A DNA stretch of 64,000 nucleotides from assembly GCF_026571515.1 (NCBI RefSeq), contig NW_026856399.1:1-64000 (forward strand), read 5' to 3'. This DNA comes from Ruditapes philippinarum. Taxonomy: Eukaryota. Shown one piece after another: positions 11,848 to 35,540 of this stretch; within the stretch, counting starts at the first letter, position 1, and every line of letters begins with the position of its first letter. Below the pieces are notes generated by a model. That model ran no database searches. It saw only the letters and a program-made list of their open reading frames with translations, and was not told where the DNA came from. A program made the translations under genes and the position numbers.

Positions 11848-12210
11848 ATTTGCGAGGAAGTTATCCAGCAAATTAATGAATATCGGTGTTTGGTTCTCAG
11901 ATGCCCGATTGCCGGAAATAATATTGTGTTTGCGAAAATGCACCTTAAGTGTTCCTCTACCAGTAAAAATGGAAAGTCAGCGCATGACCCTAACAGTCTT
12001 TGTGTGACTTAAAATTAAAACAATTTACCTGATTTCCCAAAGGTATAGACGCCAAACAATATTTGCCGGTAAAAGGGTGACTTGGCCCCGTTTTATTTAC
12101 AGGGTTCTGGTACTCGATTGCCTGCACGTCAATGCATTCACTCCATTCCCCGATCCAATGAATATGAAAGTCCATAATACCACTAGGGGGTTTCCCCATC
12201 GCATCAATCA
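1..12210 (-). CDS. nrf-6: NRF-6-like / O-acyltransferase-like membrane protein (NRF domain + acyltransferase family 3), from the second exon to the last; last exon runs off the window
   Basis: Manually spliced exons, mostly with canonical GT-AG sites: 12210-12029 (IDAMGKPPSG..WIGEWSEC..GKYC), 11648-11558 (GMCFPDTCS), ~11306-11213 (donor uncertain), 10619-~10517 (donor uncertain), 9105-8936 (FSVY..NGIRFLSMTWVMLGHTY), corrupted exon ~8200-8083, 6522-6424 (GLLVSY..FYFHRFWR), corrupted exons ~6099-5925 (LTPPYM-like) and ~5455-5374 (MQFYVLSP), 4608-4498, 2402-2282 (YIKPWTRIGPY), 1635-1449 (RTAWGMCVAWVIFAC), 753-611 (PLSRLTYCAYLVHP), 73-1 (FES). These motifs are typical of the NRF-6 family. Confidence 0.9.
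1051..1304 (-). mobile_element. tRNA-derived SINE (intronic)
   Basis: The reverse strand begins with a tRNA-like head carrying Pol III box A (TGGCGAGTGG) and box B (GGTTCGAAT) and ends in an (AAAC)n tail. Homologous to the copies at 33983-34232 and 35541-35815. Confidence 0.8.
1695..1850 (+). repeat. Dispersed repeat family (copies at ~7011-7390 +, ~33440-33605 -, ~38948-39320 +)
   Basis: Shared sequence AATCCCTAAAGAAAGCCCA...GGCTCGGTTTGATTGAGCC...CATGGAC...AAGCAGAATTC is visible, with substitutions, in all four places. Confidence 0.8.
2610..4363. mobile_element. hAT-type foldback MITE with long TIRs, carrying a nested ~1.1-kb insertion
   Basis: TIR CACAGATGTTCGGCGCG.../...CGCGCCTAACACCTTTG. 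Arms 2610-2770 plus 3903-4025 are reverse-complementary to 4102-4363. 8-bp TSD AAGGAAAC at 2602-2609 and 4364-4371. Confidence 0.85.
2771..3902. mobile_element. Nested insertion with a 14-bp target-site duplication (possibly a decayed LINE fragment)
   Basis: Flanked by AATTCAATTACCTT at 2757-2770 and 3903-3916; splits the left arm of the MITE. Confidence 0.65.
4785..5345. repeat. Degenerate ~21-bp minisatellite
   Basis: Recurring GAGCCTGGTTAAATGGACGTT / GAGACTGGTTGAATGAACGATT-like units. Confidence 0.75.
11800..11848. repeat. (ATT)n microsatellite
   Basis: Direct reading. It explains the poly-I and poly-N ORFs at 11710 and 11722. Confidence 0.95.
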
Positions 12211-13209
12211 CTACAAACAGTAATATCGTCATTAAAACAGGCAAATATAAAGAAAACGATTTTTAACCGCTGTACATTCAATGCATTTTTTTAAATTCTT
12301 TTAAGATTTTTACTTTTCATAGTAGGAATTCATGTTTGTATTGTTCTAATGAAACCAGTCATACAATTAGTCCCAATCAAATCATAAGTTTCTGGTTTAA
12401 CGGCGCACCAACACAACTTTGGCCATATGTCGCTAAAACAGGAGAGATGATTTTTGGTTAACTTCGGGTGATACAAACATCAGGGATCGAAATCGTTTCA
12501 CCTTCTGCAGCTAAGGGATGCACAGACTTCAGTAATTAGAACCCATTTAGTCGCCTCTTACGATCACACGGGAAAACACGGTGGTTGCAATTCTGATGCA
12601 TCAAAACTTAAACCCCTCAGCCACATTGTTGTAGGTAAAAAAAATAAAAGTGTACACAAATCCGTCGTAGTATAAACAATTTATAATTTCTATCATCATT
12701 GCAAGTTGCAATGCATGCCCAGCGTCGTGAACAATGAAATGTAGACTGTGAATGCGCGAGTTATTTTAGAATACCTATTTATCTATTCTAGGAATAAAAT
12801 ATTGGTGGTTTCGGGCTTAATATTTATAAATTTTGCTTGTGTAGTAAAACGACTGAAATGAAAAGCAACAATTATTGATACCCTTGATATTTTACATCAA
12901 ATATGCTTATATGCTGTATTATCCGTGTTAAGGGAAACTAAATCAAACCAAAGTAAACTAGAGGATGCTTTTGTAAAAAAGCGCATGTCTCCCCCACTGC
13001 TGAGAATAACTGTGAATGGAAACAGGAATGGAAATGGAGATAAGATAATGTAAATACCCGGTAGTCACTTCAATGAAGGCTGTCTATGGATGGTTTCTAT
13101 TGTTAAGGTTGTATGAGAAGATGCTCCTAAACTGTTTTTAACCAGGTATTCAATTTTGAAAATCCTGGTTATTCAATCAGCGTATGGCAGGCGGGCGTCA
13201 AACGAAATT

Positions 13210-13766
13210 GCACTTGATGGTCATATCATATATAGTTTCACAAATGAAATTAAATGAAATTGTGTCTGCTCCATAATTCTTCAAACCTTTAAAGGATTTT
13301 GATGATACTTGAAACAAACGTTCATATTGTCAGATTTTTTTACACTATTGAAAGACAACTCAAATTACAATGTATGTAAAATCATGATAACTGTAGTTTG
13401 TTGGGATGACTCCACTCGTTTTCACAATGAAGCCTCTCTGGTAGATACTTGAAACAAAAATTCACCACATCCAGAGAACGTGTAGAGTACATGTTTCGTA
13501 TGGCTGGTTCCAAGGTCAAGGTCTACTTGACACTTGAATGTCATATCATATATAGTTTCACAAACGAAATTAAAGGAAATTGTGTCTGCTCCATAACTCT
13601 TCAACCCTTTGAAGGATTTTGATGATACTTGAAACAAACGTTCATATTGTCAGATTTTTTACACTATTGAAAGACAACTCAAATTTCAATGTATGTCAAA
13701 TCATGATAACTGTAGTGTGTTGGGATGACTCCACTCGTTTTCACAATCAAGCCTCTCTGGTAGATA
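13210..13766. repeat. ~237-bp direct duplication of the endonuclease C-terminus and 3' UTR
   Basis: 13210-13447 is near-identical to 13530-13766. Confidence 0.85.
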
Positions 13767-16482
13767 TGGTCAATAAGTGTGTGTTGTGTGCTGTAGTAGC
13801 CTTGTTTATTATTTGTTTAAAGCGATGTCGTAACATAGTGTGGGTCAATGGATGTTCTAAATATTGAATGAGGTCAATGTTGAAGTCTCCTAGAACTATG
13901 CAGTTTTCTGTTGGTGAATTTTCCAAGACAAGGGTAAGCTTTTGAAGGAACAAGTTAATCGGCAATGACGGAGGTTTATATACAGAGTAGACAGACAGTT
14001 GTTTAGCTAAAAGTTTTACAGCAACACACTCGATTCCACATGCATCCGTGGGTATTCGTTCATAAGCAAAGTCTTGATGAATGAAGAGGGCTACACCACC
14101 TTTAACAGTTGACTGATTAGTGTCCAATGTATTCAGATGATTATTATTATAATGTCGACACTGTAATTCTACATTATAGGTCTGGAGGGGATTTCTGAAT
14201 GTAGAATTCTGGTTCATCCAGGTTTCTTGCAGGGCAATGATATCCATATGTTGAAGGAACAGATTGGAGGTAAATTCTTGAAGATGTGGTAGTAAGCCTT
14301 CGCAGTTGTGACTTGCAATATACATATGGTTGGTATGATCAAAACCTTGATCTGGTTCAAGAGAATTCCATCCTGGTAATGTGTTAGCCTCTGGCATATG
14401 AGACAATTTGTTTTGTATTGATGGGTCACAATATATTGCGTCAAGGTTGAAGTGGTCCTCTAAAAGGTGCAGACCAGAAGAAGATGTGACACGACTGAGA
14501 GCTACATAAGACATTCCAGGTTGAAAAGCTCCTTCCAGAGAAACAACTGCTGTTGATGTTGTAGCACCTTGTATTTTATGGCAAGTAACAGCCCATGCAA
14601 GCATGAAAGGGTATTGATGCCTTGTTATCTGAAATGGTTTAGTTTGGATTGTTTCAGTTTGTGGTCGTATAACAGTTGATGAACTGTGCACATGTGATGG
14701 AGGTCTGAGACGACTTCGTGAGTTAAAGCCAACTCTTTCTTCTTGAAACAAAACACATATAGCTTCAGGCAGTCCTAAAGGTGATGTCCCTGTTATGATT
14801 TCTGTGACAGCGCCCATCACACCATTAGTTAGTCCATCAGCTACGTCAATATTCATGGTGAGCATGACTCGAGTGCCACAACATAGGGACAGATATGCTG
14901 GTAAATTTGCCCTGTTAGACTGTACAGGCTCATTTCGTCTGTATGTTCGTTGAGTTCTGTTGTCATGACAGATATCAGCTGCTTCCAGAGTGTACAATGT
15001 TTCTGTGCTTGCTTTTTTCTCAAGCATAAAGTCATTGTGCTCTTTCAGTTGTTTATGTTTTGGAGCAATGTGAAGTGCATCTACTGGATAAGCAGGACTA
15101 GTTTTGCTTATTTTACGCTGCTCAAGGAACTTCTTGTCAGCAGCTGTCAATGGTTCATTCTTTATTCGAACTCTCAATCTGTTGAGCAGGTCAATAAAAT
15201 CCCTATCACCTTTCTGGCGCACAACTTCTGTCAATTCCCATATATGAAACATACTCCAAAGATCAGTGAGTGAAGAATTGCTGGAAAGCAGGGATTTCTT
15301 TGCGACAGGTGGAATTTGATAGAAATCTCCTACTGCCAAAATGGACACATTACCAAAGCAAGCAGTAGAGGAGAATGGCTGTTTTATTTGTTGCAGTCTA
15401 CAGTGTATAAGTTCAAGCAGGTCAGATGGAACCATAGAGATCTCATCTATGATCAGAAGCTGGAGATCTTGTAGTTTGGATCTAAGTGTGTTAGCAGCAT
15501 CCTCAGATAACACTTTCGACGAGGTCCTGTTTATAGAAAATGCCGAGTGAATTGTTTGGCCACGAATGTTGAAAGCAGCTGTGCCTGTATAGGACAGTAG
15601 CAAAACAACAGGCAAGTCAGGATTTCCACTTTGTCTAGTGAGGATTTTGTTTATTTCATGATAGATACATTTAATGGTAAATGATTTACCAGTACCTGCG
15701 CCGCCAGTTAGGAATATGTAAAAGGGTGCCACATTGTCAGTATTTCGTTTCAGATGAGCCCAGTGTTTGATGAAGTGGAAAATTTGAGCTTGCTGCTGGT
15801 TCATGTTTCTTAGTCTGTTCTTTTGCTCAAGGTGATCATTTGAAGAGATGACTTGGCTGGGAGTTGTGTAATGGGAAGAGGTGACAGGTTGCTGGTTAGG
15901 GGAAAAGTCTGGTATGTCTTCCGGTGGAATTTCTTCAGCTTGTTCTTTAAACAGCTGTAATGCAATACGAAGTTCTTCTTCATCTTCCTGTCTCATTGGC
16001 TCCTGGTTTGGAGCTACATCAGCCCAGGCATCCTCTCCATATCCGTGCTGTTGTAGATCTCTCCAAGCTTCATCTAGATCTGTAGTGAGCTTCTCAAATT
16101 GGGATATGGTAGGTAAAATGACAGCGGAGTGCTGATTAAACATGTGCTCAAAAGATTCTGCATCAGTCAGTTGTAGGTCCTTGCAACGATGAGGAAAGTA
16201 CATTCTGATGAGGTTGTGATAATAATCTTCAGAGTTTTTTTCTTTGTTTACTCTCATGTACCTTACAACAGCTGGTTTGCTCCTTTTCATAATGGTTCCC
16301 AAGCCATTCAGAAGTGTGTAGTGTTTCATGTCTGTATTATCAATAGATTCTTCTTGTACATCATCAACATTAATGGGGCGTCTACTGGTAATAGTGTAGT
16401 CTCGGGCAAATACTGCTAAGGACATCTGTTCAAACTCATCAGTGGTTGGTCTTGCAAGATACCGATCTAGAAGACTAGTCAT
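13679..16482 (-). CDS. PIF1-family SF1B helicase fused to an apurinic/EEP endonuclease (C-terminal part of RepHel)
   Basis: Helicase motifs GGAGTGKS, IIDEISMV, GDFYQIPPV, LAWAVTCHKIQG, YVALSRV. EEP motifs HNCEGL, LQETW, GGVA, VYKPP, GDFNID, and, after a +2 slip in an (AC)n run, LIDHIY...SYH, stop at 13679. Confidence 0.93.
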
Positions 16483-19400
16483 CCAGACATCAGTATCGTC
16501 ATCGTTCTTTAGGACATGGAGAGGTTTAGTAATCTTAGCGGAACGTCTATCAGCGGGCCAAAGACAACTTTGGGGAAAGACGCTTCGGCAACCAGTGACC
16601 TGTACACATTATGAAAAAAATTTCGTAATTAAAAAAACTTTTCCCAACTCCTAAGTTGCTGCAAGTTCCAAATGTCCTTTTTTCTGTTTTTCTGGGGCTT
16701 TTCTTAAAAAAATACCAAAGTTCCCCTTTTCTGCTTTCTAATTAACTAATTTAAATTAATGATACAACGTAGGCTCTAGGAAGGCGATGTTTTTGTTCCA
16801 TTCCGGGCTCTTAAAAGGGGGTTTGTATGGATTGACCAGCTTCTTTTCATCTTTTTTATAGATGCAGTTTTTTTTTTGCTAAGCACAATGGCTGCTTCAT
16901 TGAGCTTGGGTTATATTAAAGAGACTAAAAAGATTTTCGCCTCGGTCATCACTACTTCTTCTTCCTTTTCCTGGCATGTTTTTATGGCATCGGAGACAGC
17001 AGACAACAGGTCAACAGCAGCTTTTTTATATTCTGCTTGCGAAACATTTTCTGGTGGCTCTTTAGGGGTAGCAATAAAAGTATGTAAACATATTGGACGC
17101 GGAAAGCCAAACCTACAGTCTCTGTTTCCCTTTTTGCATGTCCTTGAATGACCTTTGGAATGCATTTGGACATTTTTGACAATGTCATACAATTCGGGAT
17201 TGACGTGTTCGTCTGGAAGGCTACAAGTAATGTACTTGTCAATGTATTTAACGAAATCCTCATTGCTGTCAGCATCTGCATTGAAAGCTGGTGCATCAGA
17301 ACACCAAAACAGACAATGAACGTGGGGCCAGCCACGACTCTGGAACTCTGTTCGGTAAAAGAAGTCTTCAACCTGTCCAATTGGATGTGCAGAAGATAGT
17401 ATAAGGTCTGTTATAAAAGTGAGCACCCGATGTTGGAACATGCGACAGGCAGTTACAGGATTAGAGTTTATTATCTGTGTGTAGGAAGACCAATCCAAAT
17501 CTGTAGGTACAGATTTTCCAAGCTGTGTGCAAATGGCTGTGACTATCTCAGGCCAGCGTCTATCAGCTGCAGAGAAGCTACAGAACCATGTGGGAATTCC
17601 TAATTGTTTGACCATAGCGAACATGTCTTTCAAAGTTTTTTCCCAGTATGGCGGTGAGCCTCGAGCTGTTGAAAGGAAATGGTAGCCCTTATCTGAAGAC
17701 AGGATTTGTTGCCGTCTGTGAGGATTTTTGAGTTCTGTTGCTGTAATATGATCCTGATCAAACACTCCACTGGAACCTTTACGCATAGCTATTGACACAG
17801 AACTGTTAATTGTATTCAGTTCTGATATGTACTGGCTGTAAAAAATATACTGAGGATCACTTGCAAATCGTAAATCAGCACTAAACAACTGCCTGTTAAA
17901 GTATCTATTCAGTCCAAGCTTAACATTTCTCTTTTGGCTGAATGTGTTCTTGCCTGTGGGAAATAAGTAAGGAAATGCCCGAGATTCCATGTCAAACACA
18001 GTTCCTGGCCTAGAACCCTGGCCCGGGGCAATACAAAAAACAGAGTCTGGAAGATCTTGGGTGCCAGCAACTTGTGTCAAGTCTTCTGGTTGGAGACAGG
18101 AGACCATAGGAGCAGATGTCTCATGCAGGTCTTGATCAGTGTCATCAACATCTGAAATATAGAGTGCGGTATAAGTACATGTACTACAAGAAACTTTGCA
18201 AGAAAGAGCGCATAAAGCCCCAGCTACTAACTATATGGCATGGATGTGTACAGAGTGTTTAAAGACAACATAAGACTTTTATGGAGAAAGTTTGATAAAG
18301 GATTTTTAGTTTAGATATATCTAATTGTCAGAATACGTGAACAATAATTTCAATAACATTTTATACAAAAAATTACAAATGTATATTAGAAGAAAATTAC
18401 TGGAATTTTAAGAATTTTATAGTGTGCTTATACAGGTTAAACTGGAACAGGGAGTGATATTACAAGCTATTATATGGCAACTTTTCTAAATGTAATGCAG
18501 TGGGGGTCATATTTCTTTCTAGAACTGAGAATTGGAGTTTGAAGATTGGATGATAAGATTATTGAATAGGGATACCTTCACTTGTGCTGGCCAGGTCAGG
18601 ATGATCAGTGGAAATAGAAGACACAACATCACTTGTGCTGGCTTGGTCCGGTTGATCAGTGGAAATAGCAGACACTCCATCACTTGTGCTGGCCAGGTCA
18701 GGATGATCAGTGACAGGACAATGTTGATGAATATTAGGTACAGCCGGAACTACACATGGTTCACGAAAAGCTGAAAAGTAGAATGAGTATGGGAGAATTA
18801 AGTTACTGAAGGCTGAATCAATTGTCTTAGCAGTTCCTTAAAGTAAGATAAATAGTATAATAAGTATTTTATTATTTTATTGTGTGGTTGGGCTTATGCT
18901 TACACCAACACGTTTTTGGATCATACATCGTATATATTCCAGCTGTCGTGGTAGAGAAAGACTCATGGTGCTCCTTCAGACATATTTCATCACGAATTGG
19001 TATCTGGGAAGAACCACCAACCTTCCGTAAGTTAGCTGAATAGCTTCCTAACATAATGGCTTCTACAAGTATTATTTTTCTAAATTAAGTGTACAATAAA
19101 TTCAGAGGGTAATCTGTTTTTCAACTCATTGAGATTGACTGAGTGAGCAAAAAAGGTTTCTGTTTAGAATTGTACTACATGTACTAGTATGTGTTTGAGA
19201 GGAAACAACTATTGTGAAGACAGAGATTATCTGTAATTAAAATTTACTTACAATATTCAGATTTATCTAATATGTTCGTAGGCTGCTCATTAACTGAAAG
19301 ATTTTCAACAACTGGAAGGGTGTCATCAGATGCAAATATCTGTTCAGTTGTGGAAGTGACATTGTCCAAATTGATATCAATTGCTGAAATGAAGACCAGA

Positions 19401-22400
19401 AACATATGAAACAAACCAGCAAAAAAAACCCTAAATATAGCCGTTATTATCAAATATTAATTATGACAATTATTGTCTACATATCAAAAAGGTAAAAGTG
19501 TTTACATTTTGAAGTTTTGACTAATAAGGCAATTACATACATGAGGCAGAAATACAAGTCTACTGAAGATGGCATTGTTCACTTTTCTCAGTGAAGCGTA
19601 GTAAGATAAAAAGTAGATTTGCAAAGGGGACATGATTATAAAATAGTGTTTCTTTTATTATCTGTTCTTTGGAAAAATTTCACTTATGCTAACGAATAAG
19701 CATAAGATGTTTTAAAGCCATACTTTTGACCGTGTTAATGTTAACGATCATAAACATAAATCTAATTAATATGGTTAAGTCAATGGGTTAAGCAAAAAAG
19801 GTCAAGGAATAATTAAGCAAAGTTCACTTTATGACCCAGCAGAAAATAAGTACCTGTGAAATGTGGACTTTTCCTCTTGAGAAACAACAACGCTTCATGG
19901 ATCTTTTGAAGAGTAACTTGTTGGAAAAGGTGATGACCCCTGTACTGTAACTTGCGTTTCAGCTTCACAGCGATGATTGTTTCACTGTTAAATGATCGAG
20001 GCAGTGTTTCAACAGTTGTAGAAATGTTAGCCGGTACACAAACCACAGGTCCATGTATTCCTTTCTGACTACCTTTAGGAAGTGACACTATTTTCATAAA
20101 CGGAATGACTGGTGACACTAAATGTTTTTCTAGATTATTCAATGTTTTTAAGCAGTCCGGCTGTTCATCAAAGTTTAAATGATTGAGAGAAGCTTGACTT
20201 GGGATTTTTTTCTTCAAGAGATGTTGGTTACATGTAAAACAAATCCATTTTGGACACAGCTTGCAATCGTCATCACATGTTGTCTCAGGTTTATGCATAT
20301 TGTTCACTATAATACATCGTAGAATAAGTTCTTTATCTGGGAATTTAAGTAAATTACAATGTTTTACTTGTTTGCGGAAAAGGAGACGATAGCAGACACA
20401 ACAGGTAAAAACTGGCATCTCTGAACATTTGCTTTTGAACTGCAGGATAGCTTGGTCAGCTGATGTCACTGTTCTTTTTTTCTGTTTGGACGCACTATCT
20501 ATTACGTTCAGTTGCAGCCGTTTAACAGGATCTGCCCTAGATTTCCGTTTTGATTCACTATCTATTACGTTCAGTTGCAGCCGTTTAACAGGATCTGCCC
20601 TAGATTTCCGTTTTGATTCACTATCTATTACGTTCAGTTGCAGCCGTTTAACAGGATCTGCCCTAGATTTCCGTTTCAATGAACTATTGGTTAAGTTTAT
20701 TTGCAACCGTTTAACAGGATCTGCCCTAGATTTCCGTTTTGATTTACTATCTATTGAGTTCAGTTTCTGATGTTTAACAGGATCTGCCCTAGATTTCTGT
20801 TTCGAATCACTATCTAGTAAGTTCAGTTTCTGACGTTTAACAGGATCTGCCCTAGATTTCCGTTTCGAATCACTATCTATTACGTTCAGTTTCTGACGTT
20901 TAACAGGATCTGCCCTAGATTTCCGTTTCAATGCACTATTGGTTGAGTTCATTTGCAACCTTTTAACAGGATCTGCCCTAGATTTCCGTTTCGATTCACT
21001 ATCTAGTAAGTTCAGTTTCTGACGTTTAACAGCATCTGCCCTAGATTTCCGATTCACTATCTATTGAGATGAGTCTCTGACGTTTCACAGGATCTGCTCT
21101 ACACTTTTGTTTCGATTTTCTATATATTAGTTTTTGCTTGTCATATGTATCATTATCAGTTCTAGATATTTGAGATACGTTATTACTAATGTTTGAAAGT
21201 TTAACAGCATCTCTATTTTGCTGATCATCCAAGTATGTTTCAATCCAATCAAAGGAATTTGCAGGGTGTTTTGCAGGAAACCCAAAAATTTTTTGAGAAA
21301 ATCGAAAAAAAAGTTGTTTTAAATCTGTCTGGGCCATTTTTTAAATCATTAAAAGAAAATTCCTTGGGGCGTTTCCTAAAAAATGTTAAACAAAAGGGTA
21401 TTCCATTAACCACAGAGTGGTTATACCTTTTGGGGGTTTCACTTGCATATATAACGTGGCTTACAATTTCCTCTGTGAATATATATTTCAGTTGATCTAT
21501 CACTTCTTGAAGATGTGTATCTGATCGCAAAGAGTCAAAAACAAAGAGTTCTTTAGTACTTGTTTTGTAATATGAGCAAACCCAGTGTCTTGTCAATGGA
21601 TGTATATTTATGATGTCTTTATCAAGATGTGGTTGTGGCAAAACAATAGCTCCAGTGCCTGCAAGATGTAATTCGGCTGGTGTATACTGACCCACAGAAC
21701 AGTTTGTATCACTGGTTGCATGCATCTGCATGAGGATTAATGAAGCAGAGACAATATCATCCGGAATTTCAGTACTGGAGTCACCAATCAAGTTTGTCAA
21801 TGCTTCTGGACTGAACAGAACTGGGGCAAATCTCTGAAATATTAACACACATGTTACTTAACTGAAAACAGGATATGCTAGTATGACAATAAAGGGATTG
21901 AGCATATTAAAGTCGATAAAGTGACACTTTCTTTGATAAAACCCGCCCAAAGTATTCTATTTTTCCGTTTTATAAATTTCATACAGACGATATTTCAGCT
22001 ACGTTACCTAAAGAACGGTATTTCATTGAAAAATATATGCCAACTTTAAACAAATATTGATGACATTATAAAGCAAATATCATGACGTAATATTGACGTT
22101 GCGTACACATATGTACACAGAATTGCGATGTTGCTTAGTTACTTCACATATTTTGACACCATATTGTTATTATATTATTTGCCCTGATAATAAAGAAACC
22201 GGTCGCCAAAATGATCTCTTGATGTTAATTTTTCCTTTTAATATATATATGTATGTATATTTCTATCATTTAATGTTAATGGAGTATCACCTGTACTTCA
22301 ACAACTGCAGAGAAGTCAGTGCTCTCAGATGACAGTTGTGATGTGCTGGGCTCTGGAGATACAGGTAGTTTGCTGTTGCATGTTGTGGTAATACCAGTCT

Positions 22401-22717
22401 CTTGTAGAGTAACACTCTGGTGTGGGTATTGTACCTGTAAATGCAAACAAAAAACTAATAGTGAAGATACACATTACAACATATTACAAGGGGGTAACTA
22501 GTTAACCGTCGGTGATGGTACATTTATATAAGTAATAAATAAAATTGCTTATTCATATAATTAATCTAAAAATTGCTTTTACAAACAAAATTTGCCAAAA
22601 AAAACAATAAGCCGACAATAGCAGTGAGATGGATGACATAAAATTTACCTTTTTACGTTTCCTCAACTTGTCTGCAGCCTGCTGTTGTTTAATAGATTTT
22701 TTCTTCGTTTTTGGCAT
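13679..22717 (-). CDS. Spliced Helentron RepHel-endonuclease polyprotein gene (6 exons; frameshifts present)
   Basis: Phase-compatible GT-AG exons: 22717-22649 (MPKTKKKSIKQQQAADKLRKRKK), 22434-22291, 21833-19854, 19383-19252, 18770-18576, 18151-13679. Frameshifts at ~21250-21430, ~21050, ~16500-16950 and ~13780. Confidence 0.8.
16911..18151 (-). CDS. Helitron Rep (HUH rolling-circle endonuclease) domain
   Basis: FPYLFPTG, YFNRQLFSADLRFASDPQYIF, RGSPPYW..DMFAMVKQLGIPTWFCSFSAAD (motif 1), EFQSRGWPHVH (HUH motif 2), CRFGFPRP. Confidence 0.93.
18576..18730 (-). repeat. Coding 51-bp (17-aa) tandem repeat in a RepHel exon
   Basis: TDHPDLASTSDGVSAIS / TDQPDQASTSDVVSSIS / TDHPDLASTSE. Confidence 0.8.
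18890..19050 (-). mobile_element. Partial SINE (same family as 35541-35815) within a Helentron intron
   Basis: AGAACCACCAACCTTCCGTAAGTTAGCTGAATAGCTTCCTAACAT matches the SINE core at 35676-35720. Confidence 0.6.
20475..21115 (-). repeat. Coding 63-bp (21-aa) tandem repeat, ~10 copies, in the RepHel N-terminal region
   Basis: Unit KRKSRADPVKRLQLNVIDSES; DNA period 63 (e.g. TTTAACAGGATCTGCCCTAG at 20521, 20584, 20648). Confidence 0.95.
21380..21833 (-). CDS. Ulp1/C48-like cysteine protease-like domain at the start of RepHel exon 3
   Basis: IINIH...HWVCSYY...LFVFDSL followed by TPK..., where the QxNxxDCG motif is expected; that segment falls in corrupted sequence. Confidence 0.55.
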
Positions 22718-23148
22718 TTTTACAGCTCATCTACTGCCTGCATATAAATGTTATTTAATCAATGTACATATGCCACAGAGTCAAATAGAATTTATGGTAA
22801 GGCTAAGTATAAATGCAGAATAGTTCTTACAATACTATCAGAAACTAGCTGCAAAATGTGTTTAAGACTTTGATGATGATTCTGTTAACAATATGTGAAT
22901 AAAAATGGCAATAAGTTTTAATGTTTTGTTGTGGAGAGCACATAAGATAATATTAAAATTACATTAAGAAAAAGTTGTTTATTTTATATCAAAAATGCAG
23001 TCAAAGTCTTGTAGAAAACTCGCCTTATATGTGCTTAAGCTCTCCCTTTGTTCTTCTTATGTGTGGCTATATATTTAAATATATCTTCTTGTAACAACCT
23101 AAAATGTATTTATTTCCAATATAAATATATACAAATAAATGGGCTTTA

Positions 23149-23149
<1 letters not shown>

Positions 23150-23202
<53 letters not shown>

Positions 23203-23240
23203 TAATAATAAATTATTATTATAATTATTAATAATAATCA
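23150..23240. repeat. (AAT)n microsatellite switching to (ATT)n
   Basis: Direct reading. Confidence 0.95.
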
Positions 23241-23557
23241 TGGGTATAACTAACATGTACATGTACTTGCATTATTGACTAAGTAAGGAGAAATGATTTT
23301 CATTGTGCCTAAATTTGACCCACCATTTCGAAATCATGTAGGTTGAATTTAAAGCTCTGAGTCAGTGTTTAATCTTGTATATCACATGGTAGTATTAGAA
23401 GTATCTGATAACACTTTTTATAAATATAAAACCAATGTCACTGAGAGTACATTATTGTAGTTGCTGAGACATTTAAATCTTGGGAGAAATTTTATGTTGT
23501 CGTTATAAAACAGTTTTCATTTTATTTCGGTTAAAATTTAGGCAAACATTTTTCACC

Positions 23558-23891
23558 ATGTTTGCGATAAGGATTGCTTTCTTACTGTATTTAATTGTGC
23601 ATTTAAGTACGTGCCTTAAGAGAACAGACGAAACTGTTGATTATTTCAAATTGATTCAGCACGCGCAAAGAACTAGTGAGGCGTCGAGGAAATATTCTCT
23701 CGAGGAGAACGAGCTTCCAATTGAACATTTACAAGTGACGAACAGTTACGAAAAAGTGTTAGCACGTGCGGAAGAGATTCAGGTGTCCGGGTTTGAAGAC
23801 GTAGGCCCTTATGATGTTAGCAGTGTATGTTTAAACCATACAAAATTATTAATTGATGCATTGATACGACGAGAGACTTGGGCATGGAGAA
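23558..23891 (+). CDS. nrf-6: NRF-6-like first coding exon (signal peptide + start of NRF domain)
   Basis: CACCATG start; hydrophobic signal MFAIRIAFLLYLIVHLSTC; VSSVCLNHT..W-A-W-R; donor A|GTAAGT (phase 1). Joining it to the exon at 12210 gives WAWR-M-IDAMGK, the conserved NRF motif. Confidence 0.8.
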
Positions 23892-24608
23892 GTAAGTATT
23901 TTATGGCTGCTTTAATATATTTTTCTTTGCATTTTTAAAAATAATATAAAAAAGAAATAGAAAAGAAACGGTCGCTAGTTTACTGTGTCAATATCTCTAT
24001 TTACATTTACACTCATTTGGATTGCTGTATTACTAAAAATGAAAGATCTAGTTCTTCAACTCTACAAATTTGAATAATCAGTAGGGTTTTGCGTGATTGA
24101 GAACGATCAGTATAAAAGTCGGTTGTAAATCGAAGTTCGAATTATCAGGAGTGAATTGCTGAGTGTAACAAAAAATAACACAATAAATCTGTGGTACACT
24201 CGCTGACCTATCTTCGTATGGGTTTTGAATTACATAGAAAATCACGATTTAAACCCTGTTTAAAGTTAACCGACTAAAAAAATGGTTGAAAAAGGATCAA
24301 TGATTTATGTTTTACATATTTGCTCAGCATACTTCAGATATATATCTAACATTATTTATATATAGCAACGCCATGAACGATATCAAAGTAAACATTACAA
24401 AGTAAACATTAGAGTTGAAAATGTAGTGACACTGTTTATCACTGAAAGGGGAGGTAATGTTCACAGGAGAAGCGTTATTTTCAGTTTATTTTAATAATTT
24501 TGTCTCCCTTTTAGGCACTTTGTCTACCATAAACGAGCCCCGTGGATAACAACAGACATTCTAAAGTACTTTTTGTGTAATTTAAAGTCAATAATTTATG
24601 TGATTAAT

Positions 24609-25250
24609 TATGTCTCCCCCACCTCGGGGGGAGACATATTGTTTTTCCGGATGATAACTAGAGTTCCTTTAGACCTACAGACCTCAAACTTCATAGGATG
24701 ATTGGTCTTATTGAGCTGATGATCCCTATTGTTTTTGGGGTCAGTAGTTCAAAGGTCAAGGTCACACTGACCGTTGGTCAATTTCTCGTTTCCGGATGAT
24801 AACTAGAGTTCCTTTTGACCTACAGCCCTCAAACTTCATAGGATGATTGGTCTTATAGAGCAGATGATCCCTATTGTTTTTGGGGTCAGTAGGTCAAAGG
24901 TCAAGGTCACAGTGACCGTTGGTCAATTTCTCATTTCCGGATGATAACTAGAGTTCCTTTTGACCTACAACCCTCAAACTTCATAGGATGATTGGTCTTA
25001 TTAATCAAATGATCCCTATTGTTTTAATGGTCAGTAGGTCAAAGGTCAAGGTCACAGCGACCGTTGGTTAATTTTCTCCTTTCCGGATGATAACTAGAGT
25101 TCCTTTAGACCTACAACCCTCAAACTTCATAGGATGATTGGTCTTATTGAGCAGATGATCCCTCTTGTTTATGGGGTCAGTAGGTCAAAGGTTAAGGTCA
25201 CAGTGACCATTGGTCATTTTCTCATTTCCGGATGATAACTAGAGTTCTTA
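24609..25250 (+). mobile_element. Helentron/HINE 5' end with 145-bp satellite-like core repeats
   Basis: TT-ATGTCTCCCCCAC..GGGGGGAGACAT subTIR/inverted repeat, then 4.1 units of 145-146 bp (starts 24647, 24792, 24937, 25083, 25228) containing GGTCAAAGGTCAAGGTCAC. Confidence 0.85.
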
Positions 25251-26034
25251 TCAGTGAGGACATTTAACTATTATTGATATATCAGTGATATATCAGTTGT
25301 CTGGTTTTATATACTCTGTTCTTTTTTGATCTTTCCACCCTTATGCGGTCATTTCTTCCCCGCTGCGCGTTCAATGCTACATGGTCACAGCAAGGTGTAT
25401 TACACGCATTGTTTTGTTTGCTGATGATAACTACAAATTCCTACTAGCGAGTGAGTTTTCATGCAATATGTAAGTATATAGTATATCACTTTCTATTCTT
25501 GTTAACTATTACTAATAGTATACATACATGCATGGCACCATTCAGACTATGTACATATTTATTGGTATTGCGTTACAACTTAAAAACTGTCAGTATTGGA
25601 CTATTAGTTATTGTGGTTTAAATAATCAACATCAAATCTATTACTTTATGTACTGCTTTCACTTATAAGTTATGTGATTTACATGTACATGGTTTGAAAA
25701 AGGGAAGGAATAAAAAGTTACAGTTCTATTCCCATTATTCCTTCTTAGGTTCGCCTCCTAGTGGTGGTGCCGGGCGTCACTACATCTGCATGTTCACTCT
25801 CATATAGTGTAGAATTGTGTGTTTTAACAGTACCTTATGCGCATTATTGTATAAATGTACTTTTTCCTTCAAATAAAGTTACTTGATATTTTTCCTTTCC
25901 CTCAGAAAGGGCCATTTCATTTTGCAGCGCTACATGCTGCTATTACCACATTTTATAGCAGATATAGTGATGGCAAAAGAACCTGTTTGTTCAACTCATT
26001 GCATGAAACCTTGTTATCAAATAATCCAGTTTAC

Positions 26035-26265
26035 CCAGGCCTTCAAGGCTGGTGTTTGGCCTTTGTGGCTGTCTTTAATATTTGTGTTGTTTATCCAAGG
26101 CCTTCAAGGCTGGTGTTTGGCCTTTATGGCTGGCTTTAATATTTGTGTTGTTTATCCAAGGCCTTCAAGGCTGGTGTTGGGCTTTTGTGGCTGGCTTTTG
26201 TATTTGTGTTGTTTACCCAAGGCCTTTAAGGCTGGTGTTGGGCCATTGTGGCTGGCTTTATTATT
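26035..26265. repeat. ~61-bp tandem repeat, ~3.7 copies
   Basis: CCAAGGCCTTCAAGGCTGGTGTTTGGCCTTT...TATTTGTGTTGTTTAT units; explains the repetitive ORFs at 25855, 25883 and 26082. Confidence 0.9.
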
Positions 26266-26600
26266 GTAGCCTTGTCATGAGAAAACTGATAATGTGGTCT
26301 TAGGCATTGATATATATATATATATGCGTCTATATTGTCTTATATCACTCTGTACTGTTACTAGATCGCTGGCAACATCATGTTATATATTAGTCAACAG
26401 TGTTACCCTGATCAGTATTCACATGACAAGGCTCTTCATAGTGCATACAATTTATTTTTCCATTACAAACACTTGTTCATTCTAGAACTTGCATTGAACT
26501 CAAGTTGAAACTGTTGTGTCATATTTATAATTCAGCAGTTTCCACTTGACTTCTTTGATGGTTTTGCAGTATTACAAATCTTTCTTTTTATAGCACCAAC

Positions 26601-27020
26601 ATGCAATCAGCTGTATCTGAAATGAAGAGAAATTCCTTGCAATTAACTGGCCTTTTTGCAAGACTTGTACAAAAAAAAATCACCATTGAAGAAGCTAACA
26701 TTGAAATAATGGCAATAACAGATGCCTTAGATCGTAATGCAATGTGTTATGACAAGAACAGGGTTAGGTTAGAGCAAGAAAATAGAGATCTGCGAGTCAA
26801 AAACAAGGACCTGCACAAGGAGATCTACAGGAACAACGAGCAAGTGAAGCGCCTGGAAACCCAAATAGAGAAACTGGACACAGAAAAGACAGACCTTGAA
26901 AGTAAATTAGGTGCATTTGCTGAGTGGCAACAAGGGGAAGACTCATTTCTCCTAGATGCCAGTGTGGCGTCAGAACAACAAGAACACCAAGAAGAAACAG
27001 AAAAGGATGAGCTACATTAA
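26601..27020 (+). CDS. Coiled-coil protein with acidic tail (probable Helentron passenger; may be a terminal exon)
   Basis: 139-aa open frame with a heptad pattern (LEQENRDLRVKNKDLHKEI..LETQIEKLDTEKTDLESKL); candidate acceptor TTTTTATAG at 26593. Confidence 0.55.
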   Translation: MQSAVSEMKRNSLQLTGLFARLVQKKITIEEANIEIMAITDALDRNAMCYDKNRVRLEQENRDLRVKNKDLHKEIYRNNEQVKRLETQIEKLDTEKTDLESKLGAFAEWQQGEDSFLLDASVASEQQEHQEETEKDELH

Positions 27021-30000
27021 AATCTAAAACTAAAGATTAACTTACTTTACTTGTGCTTCTTGTGTAAAAGCTTGCACACAGCTTTTTATTCCTTTATGTT
27101 AAATATTTAATTAGCTTTTTGTTCCTTTATGTTAGGATGACGAACCAAATAGTTTGGATTTTGTACATTGTATCTTCAAGGACAGTTAGTCAGATCACCA
27201 AATGTATTGACATTCTTTGGAATGAAACCTCTGTTTTAATGTATGTTTGTTCAACATTTTTGTAATGTAATATTACAAATTCATTGTTTACCAACTGAGC
27301 CCTGCTGTAAGAAAATCATCATTTGGCATATGGTAGTATATTTCATGAATAGTTGCAGTGCCAAATGTTGATTTTCTTCAGCGGGGCTCATCATGCTATA
27401 TATACATGACTTAGTCTTTAAAAATGCTTTTTTATTTTCCAAAAATGTTTATTTTTTATGTATTCTAGCAGTTTCCATTATGATACTAATTGCTTAAATA
27501 TTACCTGAGCCATCTTTTTCATCTGTTTTTTTTTTATTTTGTTTGTTTTTGTTTTTTTTATTTTTTTTTTTTGGGGGGGGGGGGGATTAGTAACAGTATT
27601 TTGTATGAGGTCAAAATATTATTTTGTTTAAATGCTAATGATTTCAAATTTACCTTCATAATATGGTTACATATTCTTTAACCATTATTTTATTTTAAAT
27701 ACACGCTTGTCCTTTCTTTTCCAAAAAGGAAATAACTATTCTTTTTTAGGGATAATTTAGGGATAATGGACCTTTAATATCGATCAGTGTTAAACCAAAT
27801 ATGTCATGAATAACGTTCCTTAAAACACATTTCAAAAGTCGAGATTATAAAACAGATACAAGAACAATAATCGTTTAAAATTAGAAGAAAAACATCTTTT
27901 CATATTGTTTCATTGAGTAGGTTTCTACGTCCGTGCTTTCAAAATCTCTTAGACTGGTGTAGTTCTTAGTAGACCTAATGCTTATGAAGTTCGGTTTATT
28001 TTGTGTTACGAGTCAACTTTACCGGCGGGCTGTGAATGGATCGAATAACATAAACCTCTGTACATATTTGACATATGCTTCCATAAGATAAGATGAAGAG
28101 ACAGACTTGACAAAACATTTGACTTGAACAGTGCCACCTGGTTGCTATGTTGTAATATTATTTCAATCTTAGAATATTTTAAAATTTTGAAAAGGGGAAG
28201 ATCAAGGAACGATGAAAACGAAAACAATACAGAAAGAAAAGAAAAAGAAATCATAGGTCATAAAGTTAACGTTCAGTGAATATAAAAAAGTATAAATATG
28301 ATTACATCAAATTTTAAACTACATATTAAAATCAATGACTTATTTACTATGACCGTATTTTCAACGTAAACAATTACTAATGAATGGTTAAGAATGATTC
28401 ATTTTCCGACTTTAACTAAATGAAATAAAGATATCATATCAACTTACACTAGATTTTCACTTAGCTTTGGTCGGCCTTTTTATTTTGTTTTATCTGGCTT
28501 GTGATATTTATATATGGGATATAAAGGGGTAAATGATGGTGTTGTGTAAACACTAAATATTTAGGAAATAGATATCAATTCTGAGTGCATTGTTGTAGAA
28601 TAATGCGCGGTTGGAGTTCAAATGCGTTGCAATATAATCACGAAGGCCGATAGGCCTTTTTCACAACAAAATTCGACTACAAATGTTTTTATTTATCAGA
28701 TTTTTCAAACAACATAGCGCCCTCAATGTGAAAATACACAGGGGAATAATAAGAACGGCGAGTGCATTGTTGTAGAATAATGCACGCTTCGGACCTTCTT
28801 TGTTTATATAGAAAAATTTCCGATAGTGTTAGAATAATAAAGAGTGCGCTATATATTCAACATAACGTTGGTTGATTACTTATAATTGGATGTCAACTTA
28901 CTCGTATATAATGACGTCAACACAATAACATATTAAAATGCACGTAACGTTAATTTGACGCTAATATTGCCGCAATAACTAAGTACATGCATGTGTACTC
29001 AAGAGATGGTGAGGATAACGAAAATTTTGGTTGAAAGTTTAACAAAGAACACCATTTTTTTCCTAACTGGTTGCAGCATCTTACCATTTCAAAACTGAAC
29101 GGATTTAACTTATTTCATTGGAGCGGATCGGTGTTAAAAGATGAATTAGACGTTTTAAAATGCATTTCGGAAGACAGGTGTAAAGGCAAAATTTTAGCAT
29201 TTAATCAGTCAAGCGCCTTGTCCGGTATATACCGGAATACGATATTGTAGTGTAGTGCTTTTAGTCTCACTCCAACTGAACATTTTACATACAGGCAGGT
29301 AGAAGATTTTGCTACAATTTCTAAGGTTACATCGAGGGAAGAAACCCACTGATGATTGACTGCAGTTCTTTATGAAAGCCGTTTTTTGTCACCTTTGGCT
29401 GAATTACTTATGTACAAAACAAGTACAAGAATGTCCAAGTTGATATCAATAATCATTACTTCCATAAGGCATTTCAGTTAAAATTTGATAGAATTAACAA
29501 CAACAACAACAAAATTTTGTAGTATCGCTAAAATCCGTGGTAGCACCTTTGATATTTTGATATGAATGGAAAAGATGAAGTTCCTGTTACCATTTGTGTG
29601 AGTCATTTTAAATTTTCTAGTGTAAGTCAAATGAAAATAAATCTCTACTCAATCAGGTGTCATTATTATGATCAAAATATTATGTAAATATTCATTTTGA
29701 AAGTTATCCTGCTTCTATCAGTTCTGATATACTTCCAATTGTACAAAAACATGTAGGATTAAGGCATTTTAATTTTGTTCTTTGGGTTTCGTTTATATAA
29801 AAACGAGATTTTTTAAGCAGACTCCACTGAGGTTTAAACATTTGGATTTCTTTGATGGATGACCTTGGGCACTTTAAAAAGAAATATATGCAAAGATAGT
29901 TAAGAAATATATTTTGAAATAACTTGAAAATCGTATTTTAATGCTTTTCTAAGCTCGATTTGAGTGAAAATTGTTTGAACGCTTTTCATTATTGGTCATC

Positions 30001-31554
30001 CTTTTTTGAAATTTGAATAATTATTCTGGAAAAACGAATTGCGCGAATGATCTGAAGTTTTGCAAAACGATAAGTGGTCTAAACCTATATCAAACGGTAC
30101 ATTATCTTGAAAAAATATTTTCAGTCCCATCATTAAAAAGAAAATCTAAGTGGAGTCCCTTTAATCAAAATGGAATTTCTCAGTAATTTGAAGGAAGAAA
30201 TAAAGGCCTTCATTTTTATTTCGGGAATTTTCTTCTACATTGAACTATTGAGAAGTATCTTAAAATCTATGACATTGTACGACAGTTGTGTTTCTAACAT
30301 CATAATTAAGATCTTTTTCTTGTTGTCACTTAGGATATTTCTTAGCGCTGTTAATGATGGCATCCTGAAGCTTTTGGCTAAACTAAATTGTAAAGTAATT
30401 GTTTCCGAAATCAACTTCAAAGCATCTTTTTTGCACAAAATCGAGATGCATAGTTTATATTACGTTTTATTCTTTCATGAGTGTTAAACAAATCTTTCGC
30501 CTTTATAAATAGTTTTTGTATAAATAGATATTATTTTATATATTTGCTCACATAATAAGGTGTATTATTTTAACTTGAATCTGTAACGGGGATTTATAAA
30601 TTGTAGTTTAGTCATGTGAGTATCTAGATGGAGGGGCTCCTCTGGGATTTTGCTAGAAAATCTACGTAAAATCCCTTTGAGATTTGGCTATCAATATTTG
30701 TTTATAGGGAAAATCTCACAAACGCTAGTGAAATTTAACTAATGGCCTGCTTTAATGAAAACTAGGAAGATGTCAACGGAATATGCTGTTTATCAGTTAT
30801 CTGCATTATGATGCCAATGTATCCGATAATTATTCAATAGTGTAGGCAACATGAGATACTAGGCATTTTTACAGGTACGAAGATAAATCATTCATTACCG
30901 CTTATTACCTGGTGTGTAAAGGAAGTATTTTATAATATGACACAAATTGAATAATCCATCTGTATTAATAATTGTTTCAAGTACCGTTGTAATAATGATT
31001 GTTTATTACAAACATACATTTTGCCTTATGTGATATAATGATGCTTATCAATCTCGGTTGATATGATGCCAAAATCCGTCGGCAATTATAAATGAAAGAT
31101 CAAATATAAATAAACTTCCTATGCCTAATTGTTAACTAGTATAATGTTGGAAAAACAGTTACATAAAGTTATTTTATATTATACAATTGAACTTTATCAT
31201 TTTAACGGGTATAATAAAATGCTAAATTTTCAAAAGAGTATTTGAGGATCTGTGTCCGAATCAAAACATCAGTCGAATGAAATTACTAGCAATTCTAACA
31301 CACCCTCATTTTTCTCTATTGAACATACAAGGAAAGAAAGTGTTTGTGTTATTATGCGATAAATCATTGTGGCCGTTCTCTACCTAACCATTATACATGC
31401 GACGTAACAATTCAAAATGCGACACGCCAAAAAATAAGAACGAAACAAATCAGGCGCAATTTAGCTTGATATCAGATACAGCAGTATTTATTTGTTGACG
31501 GCGTGTTAGAACAGAAATAATATATTCAAATAAGTGATTTTATCGCTTGATAGA

Positions 31555-31645
31555 ATCACTGTTTGTCGTTTGAATGCGCATCAATACATGACTCGGGCTT
31601 CACCCGCGTGATATAATTACTCGCATCGGACCTCCAAACAGTGAT
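31555..31645. repeat. Palindromic (hairpin) MITE-like element
   Basis: ATCACTGTTTG...TGCG...CGGGCTTCACCCG...CGCA...CAAACAGTGAT inverted symmetry. Confidence 0.5.
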
Positions 31646-32809
31646 TTTATTTACTTCTAAAATATAATTTAGCAATAATCAAATTTTGCTGTTTTTTTTA
31701 AATAATTAACAATACAAAAGAATAGCTGTATAAATTGAAATGACAGTTTAATTTTAGTACTGTTTCCTCAAAAATATATGAGACAGACCTTCATGGAATT
31801 TAATTTGATTTCAATAAATGATTAATGAAATTCCTATAAATTACAAAAGCATGTTTTACATAGAAATGTCAGCACAAACCTTTCAAAATACAACTTTTTA
31901 ATATCAGAATTTGTCTGATTTATAGCCATAATTATATTAATTAAGAAAATTGTAACACATGGGTCACTGCTTTTTATTTTCATTAAGGAATATTAGTAGC
32001 TTGAATTAGAAGCCTACATTATTTCTTTTGATTGCTCATGAGTACATTTTACTACAGTTACTGCAATGTTATTATAAATGAATGTATAAAATGTCATGAT
32101 AGTAAATTGATTTAACTAGAGAACATATATCCACTCCTTATCCATCATCCACACACAAAGTATTTACAGTCCGCTTGATAAATTCGTTAGAACATTGGTA
32201 CAATGTATACCTCTTTTTCAAATAAGATTTCAGCAGATTTATTTATGGGCTATATGCGAGTGCACATTAACAAAATGAAACACTTTTCGTTGTTTGAATG
32301 TTATACTTATAGCATATTATTGTATAGCATGATATAACATAATAAGCAATAATTATTTAGCTTTTTTATATAACTATATACTTAGAAACTATGCGTAGTT
32401 GTTGTTTCGATCTGTTTTGTTCATATATCGTATTATGCGACCGATATAAGTGCATGACACACTGAGTGAATAATATGCAAAATACTAAAAAAGGAAGAAA
32501 ATGTGTTAGATGCGAACCACAATAGGAAACAATGTACACGATTACACATTTTCAAATTTCGTTATATATGACTTTTACACACTGTGACCCTCACCGATTG
32601 GTCAGCTACTGTAGAATTACGACTGCACTCTACGAGAAACAAAAACGCAATGAGGAATATCGATACGGTCAATGCACGTCTCATTTGAGCACGGACGTTG
32701 TATGACGTAATAAAATTCCCATTTTGCAAAGCATGTACTGTTGCCTTACATTTGAGATGCTTTTCTTACATATTAGTAATCACATGTTCTTGCATTTGGT
32801 ATTTAACAG

Positions 32810-35349: not shown

Positions 35350-35540
35350 TATCCATGACAACAGAGATAAACGAATTAAAAGTGCAATATGGGTGAACTG
35401 TCCAGTTCATTTACTTACATAACGCTTCTTAAGCAGACTATAACTGATTTTTTTAAAGAAATTTTTCCTTATATTTTATATGTTCCTTTTTGAACGCGTC
35501 TCTTGTTGTTAACATGTCTTTTGTAGAAATTTTATCCATT

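Follow-up and report, generated by a model that had tools for sequence, protein, structure and literature searches.

Why should a host gene and a transposable element both appear at one place in two pieces that face opposite ways? This question is raised by a stretch of 64,000 nucleotides (nt) of Ruditapes philippinarum (assembly GCF_026571515.1, contig NW_026856399.1, positions 1 to 64,000, with 0 N), referred to here as the window, in which an NRF-6-like gene has its first coding exon on the plus strand and its later exons on the minus strand, and in which a Helentron has its 5' end on plus and its 3' end on minus. The first-pass annotation had explained both by one event, the flipping of about 23.2-27.7 kb after a Helentron of about 13 kb had inserted into NRF-6 intron 1. 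The explanation that we favour, and hold to be probable, is close to this: a young 13-kb Helentron lies in intron 1, and its halves are opposed because a 4.3-kb piece was flipped, likely via a real double break with end-joining at a hairpin and palindrome.

The host gene gives the first line of evidence. Exon 1 (23558-23891, plus, 111 codons) begins with an ATG at 23558, directly preceded by an acceptor-like AG, and has a phase-1 donor after 23891, while the acceptor of exon 2 (12029-12210, minus) lies at 12210. As had been claimed, the two pieces join in frame: the last base of exon 1 and 12210-12209 form a Met codon, and the frame continues through exon 2. A query with exon 1 gave 1 match among 167 candidates, the NRF-6-like protein XP_053380235.1 of Mercenaria mercenaria (P0001), whose residues 1-111 align to 23558-23890 (plus) at 55% identity and whose residues 110-171 align to 12217-12032 (minus) at 71%; the remaining exons (residues 168-720, within 1-11663) follow on minus down to position 2. 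Exon 1 and exon 2 are thus consecutive exons of one gene. A separate minus-strand exon 1 for the left gene, the alternative that the first-pass annotation had named, was not seen, as the window holds no second exon 1 on either strand; likewise there is no NRF-6 exon in 27409-32710 and no middle exon in 23892-32760.

Exons for P0001 residues ~267-327, 384-413 and 450-508 are absent or barely detectable, and error-rich patches lie in those intervals. The NRF domain PF20146 is above the cut-off in exon 2 (E 1.2e-09) and below it in exon 3 (E 0.0013), and the acyltransferase PF01757 gave no Pfam match in 3/3 single-exon open reading frames (ORFs) tried, from exons that are 62-97% identical to P0001, a protein with PF01757. 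Exon 1 had 155 pattern matches in the JGI metagenomes, 0 of them confirmed. Two observations concern the rest of the gene: the exon at 9106-8937 (minus) has a frame change near 9060 beside an error-rich patch, which may be an error or a real lesion, and an intron holds an element with ~160-nt terminal inverted repeats and an internal palindrome (2610-4363).

The Helentron interrupts intron 1, of which the 3' part (12211-12957, minus) has a T-run at the Helentron's 3' boundary and the 5' part (23892-24608, plus) has TT at the 5' boundary, T-runs being present at both ends of the element. The 3' end (12958-12997, minus) is composed of a subterminal inverted repeat (subTIR), a loop with a 6-bp stem, and CTAG followed by Ts; the 5' end (24609-24638, plus) is a subTIR with an inverted repeat, forming a hairpin with a 12-bp stem, and is shared with HINE-type loose ends at 24646. 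The orientation of these ends had been read from a 13-mer in direct orientation, against the inverted subTIRs of an intact HINE elsewhere in the window. The 13-mer indeed has exactly two copies in the window, at 12985 and 24610, both on plus (~0.0003 expected by composition), and the subTIR 10-mer of the HINE is inverted (50382-50391 / 51960-51969). However, an inverted copy of the 11-mer occurs at 24627-24637, since the 5' end is a hairpin, and for this reason the argument from direct orientation looks weaker, by sequence alone, than first stated. No further subTIR of this Helentron's family lies downstream in the window.

The layout of the intact element comes from other samples. For the stretch 11860-31800, we compared the window with 4 of 24 listed sequencing runs, namely X1, X2 and X7 (DNA contig sets from three studies) and X24 (a raw RNA run, of which 4 in 100 reads were taken), leaving out runs X18-X23, which have small word shares; statements on listed joints, loose ends and pieces refer to 15 of 313, 24 of 3433 and 24 of 22736, respectively, with 23143-23243 left out. 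Among the short-read contigs of other studies of the same organism, record 9 of X2 (3337 nt, depth 24.5) follows the window on plus over 21051-23131 and then on minus over 27408-26149, its positions 2077 and 2078 being adjacent; record 15 of X7 (3390 nt, depth 32.2) runs on plus to 23131 and then on minus over 27408-26149, with positions 2130 and 2131 adjacent, and the contig ends of X1 fit the same join. More contigs at matching depth cover 25218-26102, 18683-20522 and 13718-18607 with 0-3 differing letters each, and Helentron contigs in general show 0-3 letter changes relative to the window per piece of 0.7-2.8 kb. The intact Helentron is accordingly 24609-27408 followed by 23131-12958 (~12,974 nt), in the order 5' hairpin, 145-nt repeats, accessory ORF, long hairpin, palindrome, RepHel (the Rep-helicase gene) and 3' end. 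In this order the subTIRs are inverted; they are direct in the window because of the flip. The contigs of X2 and X7 thereby bear out the proposal of a ~13-kb Helentron in intron 1 split by a flip, and the different 5' end that other copies might have had was not found, the same 5' part being joined to the RepHel body. The Helentron is young, low-copy, near-identical between samples and apparently intact and autonomous.

Depth and CpG content separate the host DNA from the element. In 3/3 DNA runs the Helentron halves stand at 2.1-4.0 times the host, while 23165-24494 is at host level, exon 1 and the 5' part of intron 1 having single-copy depth. CpG observed/expected is 0.47 in 12958-23146 and 0.30 in 25248-27750, as compared to 1.02 in 23240-24608 and 1.05 in 27751-32710, which agrees with the earlier impression by eye that 25.4-27.7 kb is CpG-poor and 23.3-24.6 kb is not. 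The CpG-poor stretch does extend to ~27.7 kb (27409-27703 has 0 CpG vs 3.9 expected), but the Helentron itself ends at 27408 because its contigs leave the window there, and 27409-27.7 kb is not Helentron DNA. These data also bear on a reading without any inversion, in which an intact minus-strand Helentron extends over 24638-12958 from the same hairpin read backwards and has captured exon 1. The 5' hairpin is nearly symmetric and on minus does offer a subTIR inverted to the 3' one; yet the Helentron contigs bypass 23134-24608, which has single-copy depth and host-like CpG, the 23131/27408 contigs refute such an origin, the host gene would be left without exon 1, and 24640-27408 would go unexplained. 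We regard this reading as extremely improbable.

The contigs also place the breaks. The Helentron stops at 27408 in the right break (27398-27408, plus), which holds the left arm of an 18-nt palindrome and TG, and picks up at 23131-23133 in the left break (23125-23133, minus), which holds the right arm. The flipped piece is about 23134-27408 (4.3 kb), with breaks at 23131-23134 and 27406-27409, so that the inversion first proposed stands with its extent corrected. The TG at 27407-27408 and the CA at 23132-23133 are one Helentron dinucleotide, present once per junction, and this 2-nt overlap would represent either microhomology with the host or a 2-nt stagger. On the host side, the break lies in the DNA upstream of the ATG (23134-23557, plus), 424 nt before the ATG and ~13 nt before an (AAT)n/(ATT)n tract (23147-23238); the breakpoint is thus near this tract, as had been suggested, and not in it. 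The original 5' flank of the gene, formerly joined to 23134, would be 27409-32710 (minus), which contains high-copy repeats.

Because the Helentron halves are exactly reciprocal, the flip is likely real and not an artefact. An assembly artefact, in which faulty placement or reading turned the 4.3-kb piece round, is quite unlikely in our judgement; in its favour are the error-rich patches of the contig, the absence of the junctions from every run, and a branch of the X1 graph at exactly this site, in a stretch that is probably a heterozygous repeat insertion. Graph branches leave overlaps of k-1, and a single chimeric read gives rise to a lone junction or a fold-back, but to no reciprocal pair. 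Here both junctions cut the Helentron at the same base with a 2-nt overlap, no gap and no N, and there is no inverted repeat to mislead an assembler. Furthermore, the three DNA runs do not seem to come from the source animal: X2 has the window's alleles at 12064, which no contig of X7 or X1 shows, X7 has those at 28861-29047, which no contig of X1 or X2 shows, and the implied host word share of the runs is 0.24-0.36. Because of this, the silence of the three runs on the junctions is not counted against the flip; they show that it is not fixed, rather than that it is false. The flipped allele is likely rare and germline, a somatic origin being less likely.

What, then, broke the DNA at these positions? 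The join is at Helentron position 2800, and the centre of the longest perfect palindrome (18 nt), one of 13 palindrome centres of at least 12 nt, is at 2798; the cut is 0 to +2 from this centre and 8 nt beyond a 95-nt long imperfect inverted repeat (27296-27390, plus), the Helentron's strongest predicted hairpin (-32 kcal/mol, z -7.65, 0/200 shuffles). The 120 nt ending at the cut have the best fold of 643 such segments (-31.8; median -8.3; best elsewhere -21.7), and a random break would fall this near the palindrome and hairpin with a chance of ~0.04-0.3%, calculated post hoc. The (AAT)n/(ATT)n tract at the host break folds weakly (-9.0). Two other mechanisms were rejected. Recombination between inverted repeats (non-allelic homologous recombination) lacks its substrate, as the two break regions share no long inverted homology (only 2 nt, or 8 nt with a different host break), and intramolecular transposition would place a junction at a Helentron terminus, but the breaks are 2800 nt inside the Helentron and in host DNA. 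Because the overlap is only 2 nt, end-joining is the likely cause, not repeat recombination. An inversion by end-joining or staggered breaks is expected to leave reciprocal junctions with little or no duplication, a pattern that the Helentron side shows (2-nt overlap).

The sequence of events would be as follows. The Helentron would have inserted first, into intron 1 of the NRF-6-like gene, at a T-run and in the sense of the gene. It may then have broken at the palindrome centre, beside its strongest predicted hairpin, together with the host DNA 424 nt before the ATG, adjoining the AT-rich simple tract, and the piece would have been rejoined in reverse on the 2-nt microhomology or stagger. Breakage at DNA that forms secondary structures, combined with end-joining or with template switching, would fit such a course, as has been argued for the O7 inversion of Drosophila (PMC7584159).

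A variant of this inversion puts the host break elsewhere. At 23277-23284, a distance of 143 nt inward from the left break, lies an 8-mer whose reverse complement is found at 27409-27416, meaning that the outermost 8 nt of the right flank recur inverted within the piece; these 8 nt could have been duplicated or have served as microhomology, with 23134-23276 and its (AAT)n as filler. A match of 8 nt arises by chance in about 1-1.4% of cases (49/5000 Markov resamples, 52/3643 random host pairs). The 8-mer was noticed post hoc, however, and the variant requires an extra insertion; the gapped alignment around it is no better than chance (34% of 1930 random pairs), and the joint at 23284, which would have long unique sides, is not among the listed joints, a weak point. 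We find this variant rather unlikely. Two further ideas about the same DNA were discarded: a diverged inverted duplication of 23148-23284 vs 27409-27564 is a low-complexity alignment, and so young a product would be near-identical; and an exon of the 5' untranslated region spanning the break from a donor-like site near 27503 (minus) would be unusable, since the flipped piece has a second donor-like site at 23283.

A second rearrangement at the same site is seen in X1, which has a joint from 27408 to 27148 at depth 110, of a kind that the joint table does not state. Both ends of the X1 contigs (27177, and 22 unplaced letters before 23133) come out exactly as expected from a 266-nt tandem duplication, but not from a fold-back, which was rejected. 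We infer that X1 carries the 23131/27408 join along with this 266-nt duplication, which includes the long hairpin, accounts for ~110/263 X1 depth units and ends 5-6 nt past the flip's cut. Two different rearrangements hence end within 8 nt of the same Helentron site.

Several results weigh against the inversion as we describe it. The window's own junctions are spanned by no contig or read listed, and where the Helentron contigs of X1, X2 and X7 cross the site, none of them branches towards these junctions. The listed rows contain neither the host-side join, nor an RNA joint of exon 1 to exon 2, nor an empty insertion site. The contig has five homopolymer-rich patches (5301-6400, 7801-8500, 9101-10500, 16501-17100 and 41401-43000), and both the patch at 16501-17100 and a bad patch at 21283-21433 are replaced in 3/3 DNA runs, indicating a contig that is poorly corrected in parts. 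The 8-mer match permits a different host break, and the palindrome and hairpin statistics were calculated once the break position was known. The RNA run was unused as expression evidence: its strands are equal and its depth tracks repeat copy number (~12x in the exon 2 bin and 2-3x near exon 1).

For the host gene, the flip would mean that exon 1 could no longer splice to exon 2. The last four NRF-6-like exons (1-2508, minus) recur in the window as a partial copy in inverted orientation (32711-35350, plus), which begins abruptly inside an intron and may be a paralogue or an uncollapsed haplotype; splicing of exon 1 to its exon at 32.8 kb would be out of frame, with a stop after 16 further codons. 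The allele would be null because exon 1 is cut off from exon 2 and the downstream splice is out of frame. This copy also suggests another account, namely that two head-to-head paralogues each lost a part without inversion, exon 1 belonging to the plus copy at 32.7-35.3 kb, and a plus-strand copy of the last four exons does lie downstream of exon 1. Yet two deletions would need to cut the Helentron at the same base, the out-of-frame splice and the missing middle exon in 23892-32760 speak against a gene on plus, and the copies are far apart, with 201 substitutions and 27 indels over ~2.5 kb, as compared to 0-3 letters between Helentron contigs. Such a history is hardly credible. Because the copies have diverged so much more than the Helentron contigs, the insertion is likely younger than the duplication; over 177 codons the two copies have 15 synonymous and 9 non-synonymous changes and no stop.

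For the Helentron, no reading frame is cut by the flip, because RepHel lies wholly in the unflipped half and the accessory ORF ends before the cut; start and terminator are uncoupled. The claim that gene and element are disabled at once therefore holds for the predicted null of the gene and for the element in cis, and not for the RepHel coding frame: the true 5' start now points away from the 3' terminator, and the whole RepHel frame could still act in trans. RepHel (13690-22717, minus, spliced, end approximate) has its predicted start at 22717, 414 nt inside the unflipped half, and encodes an N-terminal module, 63-nt repeats, DUF6570, Rep (PF14214, E 1.4e-31), a PIF1 helicase (PF05970, E 8.8e-25) and an apurinic/apyrimidinic (AP) endonuclease (PF03372, E 4.4e-11), with the HUH and tyrosine motifs present. 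Its frame breaks in the window are likely assembly errors because they differ from every run covering them: 16559-16928 and 21283-21433 have other letters in 3/3 DNA runs, and 4/4 runs lack 2 nt at 13777, removal of the shift there matching the C-terminus of the Mya arenaria relative. An intact ORF would follow. Near the 3' end, a ~320-nt tandem duplication (13211-13447 / 13531-13766) repeats the last RepHel codons.

A search for relatives gave 562 matches among 8000 candidates scored; the closest of the 120 listed is Mya arenaria P0002 (63%), the other 119 standing at 32-37%. Rep motif 2 is preceded by F-Y-R and has W between G and P, where the 120 listed relatives have S in 75, W in 38, A in 1 and L in 0, with no match in 6. 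The N-terminal module (21815-21378, minus) is 47% identical to P0002 residues 92-239; it has no Pfam match, and none of the other listed relatives aligns there. Its fold may resemble that of a Ulp1-type protease. The flipped half carries a satellite-like repeat (24644-25247, plus; 145-nt unit, 4.2 copies, very high depth) and the accessory ORF (26601-27020, plus; 139 amino acids, coiled-coil-like), which ends 388 nt before the cut. The latter has no Pfam family above the cut-off, low recognition and no family in the ESM Atlas, and 121 pattern matches in the JGI metagenomes with 0 confirmed; its relatives in Mya arenaria (45%) lie on three different large contigs, a scatter as expected of a mobile gene, and on other contigs than the RepHel relative, giving no evidence of linkage.

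The element also has short derivatives. Opposite-strand joints connect 13000 with 24913 (depth 3459 in X1 and 54 in X7, 102 reads in X24) and 13040 with 25233 (71 reads, 48 starts), the short side of one such joint being only 29 letters in contigs and 56-74 in reads. These joints, from 13.0 kb to 24.9-25.2 kb, are HINE derivatives with the 5' part and 3' end of this Helentron. The flip itself might have made a new mobile unit: the nearly symmetric 5' hairpin, read in reverse from 24638, shares a strand with the true 3' end, which lies 11,681 nt downstream of it, and the two enclose the uncut RepHel gene and exon 1. Were Rep to start from this reversed hairpin, a small inversion at the recurrently broken hairpin of the element would offer Helentrons a way to capture host exons without read-through. 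Against this, the reversed subTIR has only one T in front of it, and the three DNA samples show exon 1 at single copy. We consider such a unit very unlikely.

Elsewhere in the window, a minus-oriented HINE of another family (50358-51971) contains 139-nt repeats and, at 51772-51869, a near-perfect palindrome of 98 nt; with it goes a direct repeat of 63 nt (50218-50280 / 51971-52033). At 28806-29238, contigs of X1 and X2 differ by 43-44 letters and 7 gaps in 426 nt, X7 agreeing with the window at most listed sites; these are haplotypes about 10% apart. Broken ORFs at 45652-49285 (minus), with endonuclease and reverse transcriptase motifs, presumably derive from a non-long-terminal-repeat retrotransposon. 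A DUF4559 exon lies at 57759-58394 (minus, E 2.6e-16), and the ORF at 43978-44718 (minus, 246 amino acids) resembles a coiled coil, has a hydrophobic end and matches no family above the cut-off.

If the flip is real, the locus shows at base resolution how a young transposon, after its insertion, probably harmed its host gene through a breakable DNA structure that it carried, and not through recombination with a second copy; if it is an artefact, the significance is limited to a local assembly error. The locus yields a near-identical, low-copy, apparently intact autonomous Helentron with HINE partners, and the NRF-6-like gene of the host probably has one null allele here. Two features deserve further study: that the Helentron's own hairpin breaks recurrently, and that the flip has by chance paired the reversed 5' hairpin with the 3' end again. 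Bivalves are described as rich in structural variants and active insertions (bioRxiv 10.64898/2026.02.10.705023), and a mussel NRF-6-like gene is reported to be upregulated by okadaic acid (PMC4655091), which has no direct bearing on this copy. In the Helitron Helraiser, the left end is essential but the right end dispensable, and loss of the terminator increases read-through into flanking DNA (PMC4778049).

Helentrons have a Rep-helicase-endonuclease, a 5' subTIR with a nested inverted repeat, a 3' subTIR with a stem-loop, terminal T-runs and short tandem-repeat derivatives, and as of 2014 their mechanism was still in need of biochemical study (PMC4067079). Our element matches these Helentrons and HINE/DINE-1 in protein, ends, T-runs and short derivatives; it departs from them in its accessory ORF of no known family, in being split by a host-containing inversion, and in the W of motif 2, where the same paper gives S (Helentron) or L (Helitron); this residue and an F/Y-x-R ahead of the motif are treated there as a quick marker "in most cases". 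The Mya arenaria PIF1-like protein WAR14429.1 (P0002) shares this W and the domain order, with 63% identity over 98% of the 953-amino-acid helicase-endonuclease ORF. The bivalve HINE literature that we found is on non-autonomous elements: Cg_HINE of Crassostrea gigas (PMC7492417) has a similar subTIR, inverted repeat, satellite-like array, 3' palindrome and TT target, but the present locus also includes the coding partner, and other samples have near-identical copies of it. For the host gene, the products of exons 1 and 2 are consecutive in XP_053380235.1, a gene model at 55% identity in exon 1 and not a tested function. A search by title and abstract opening, with most subscription papers outside its reach, gave no published inversion that splits a Helitron or Helentron together with a host gene, which is weak evidence. 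In Helentron-Da-40 and FoHeli4/5 (PMC4067079, PMC5148889) the coding part and termini can also face opposite ways, for which self-insertion has been proposed (PMC5148889); there, however, the termini stay paired, whereas in the present copy one of the breaks falls in host DNA and the pairing of the termini is lost. The O7 inversion of Drosophila subobscura (PMC7584159) likewise has breaks in or beside palindromes and AT-rich simple repeats with little or no homology, but the present one is 4.3 kb with a 2-nt overlap, and its structure is supplied by a young transposon. In our interpretation the flip behaves as an end-joining inversion at non-B DNA within a typical Helentron, both being kinds already known.

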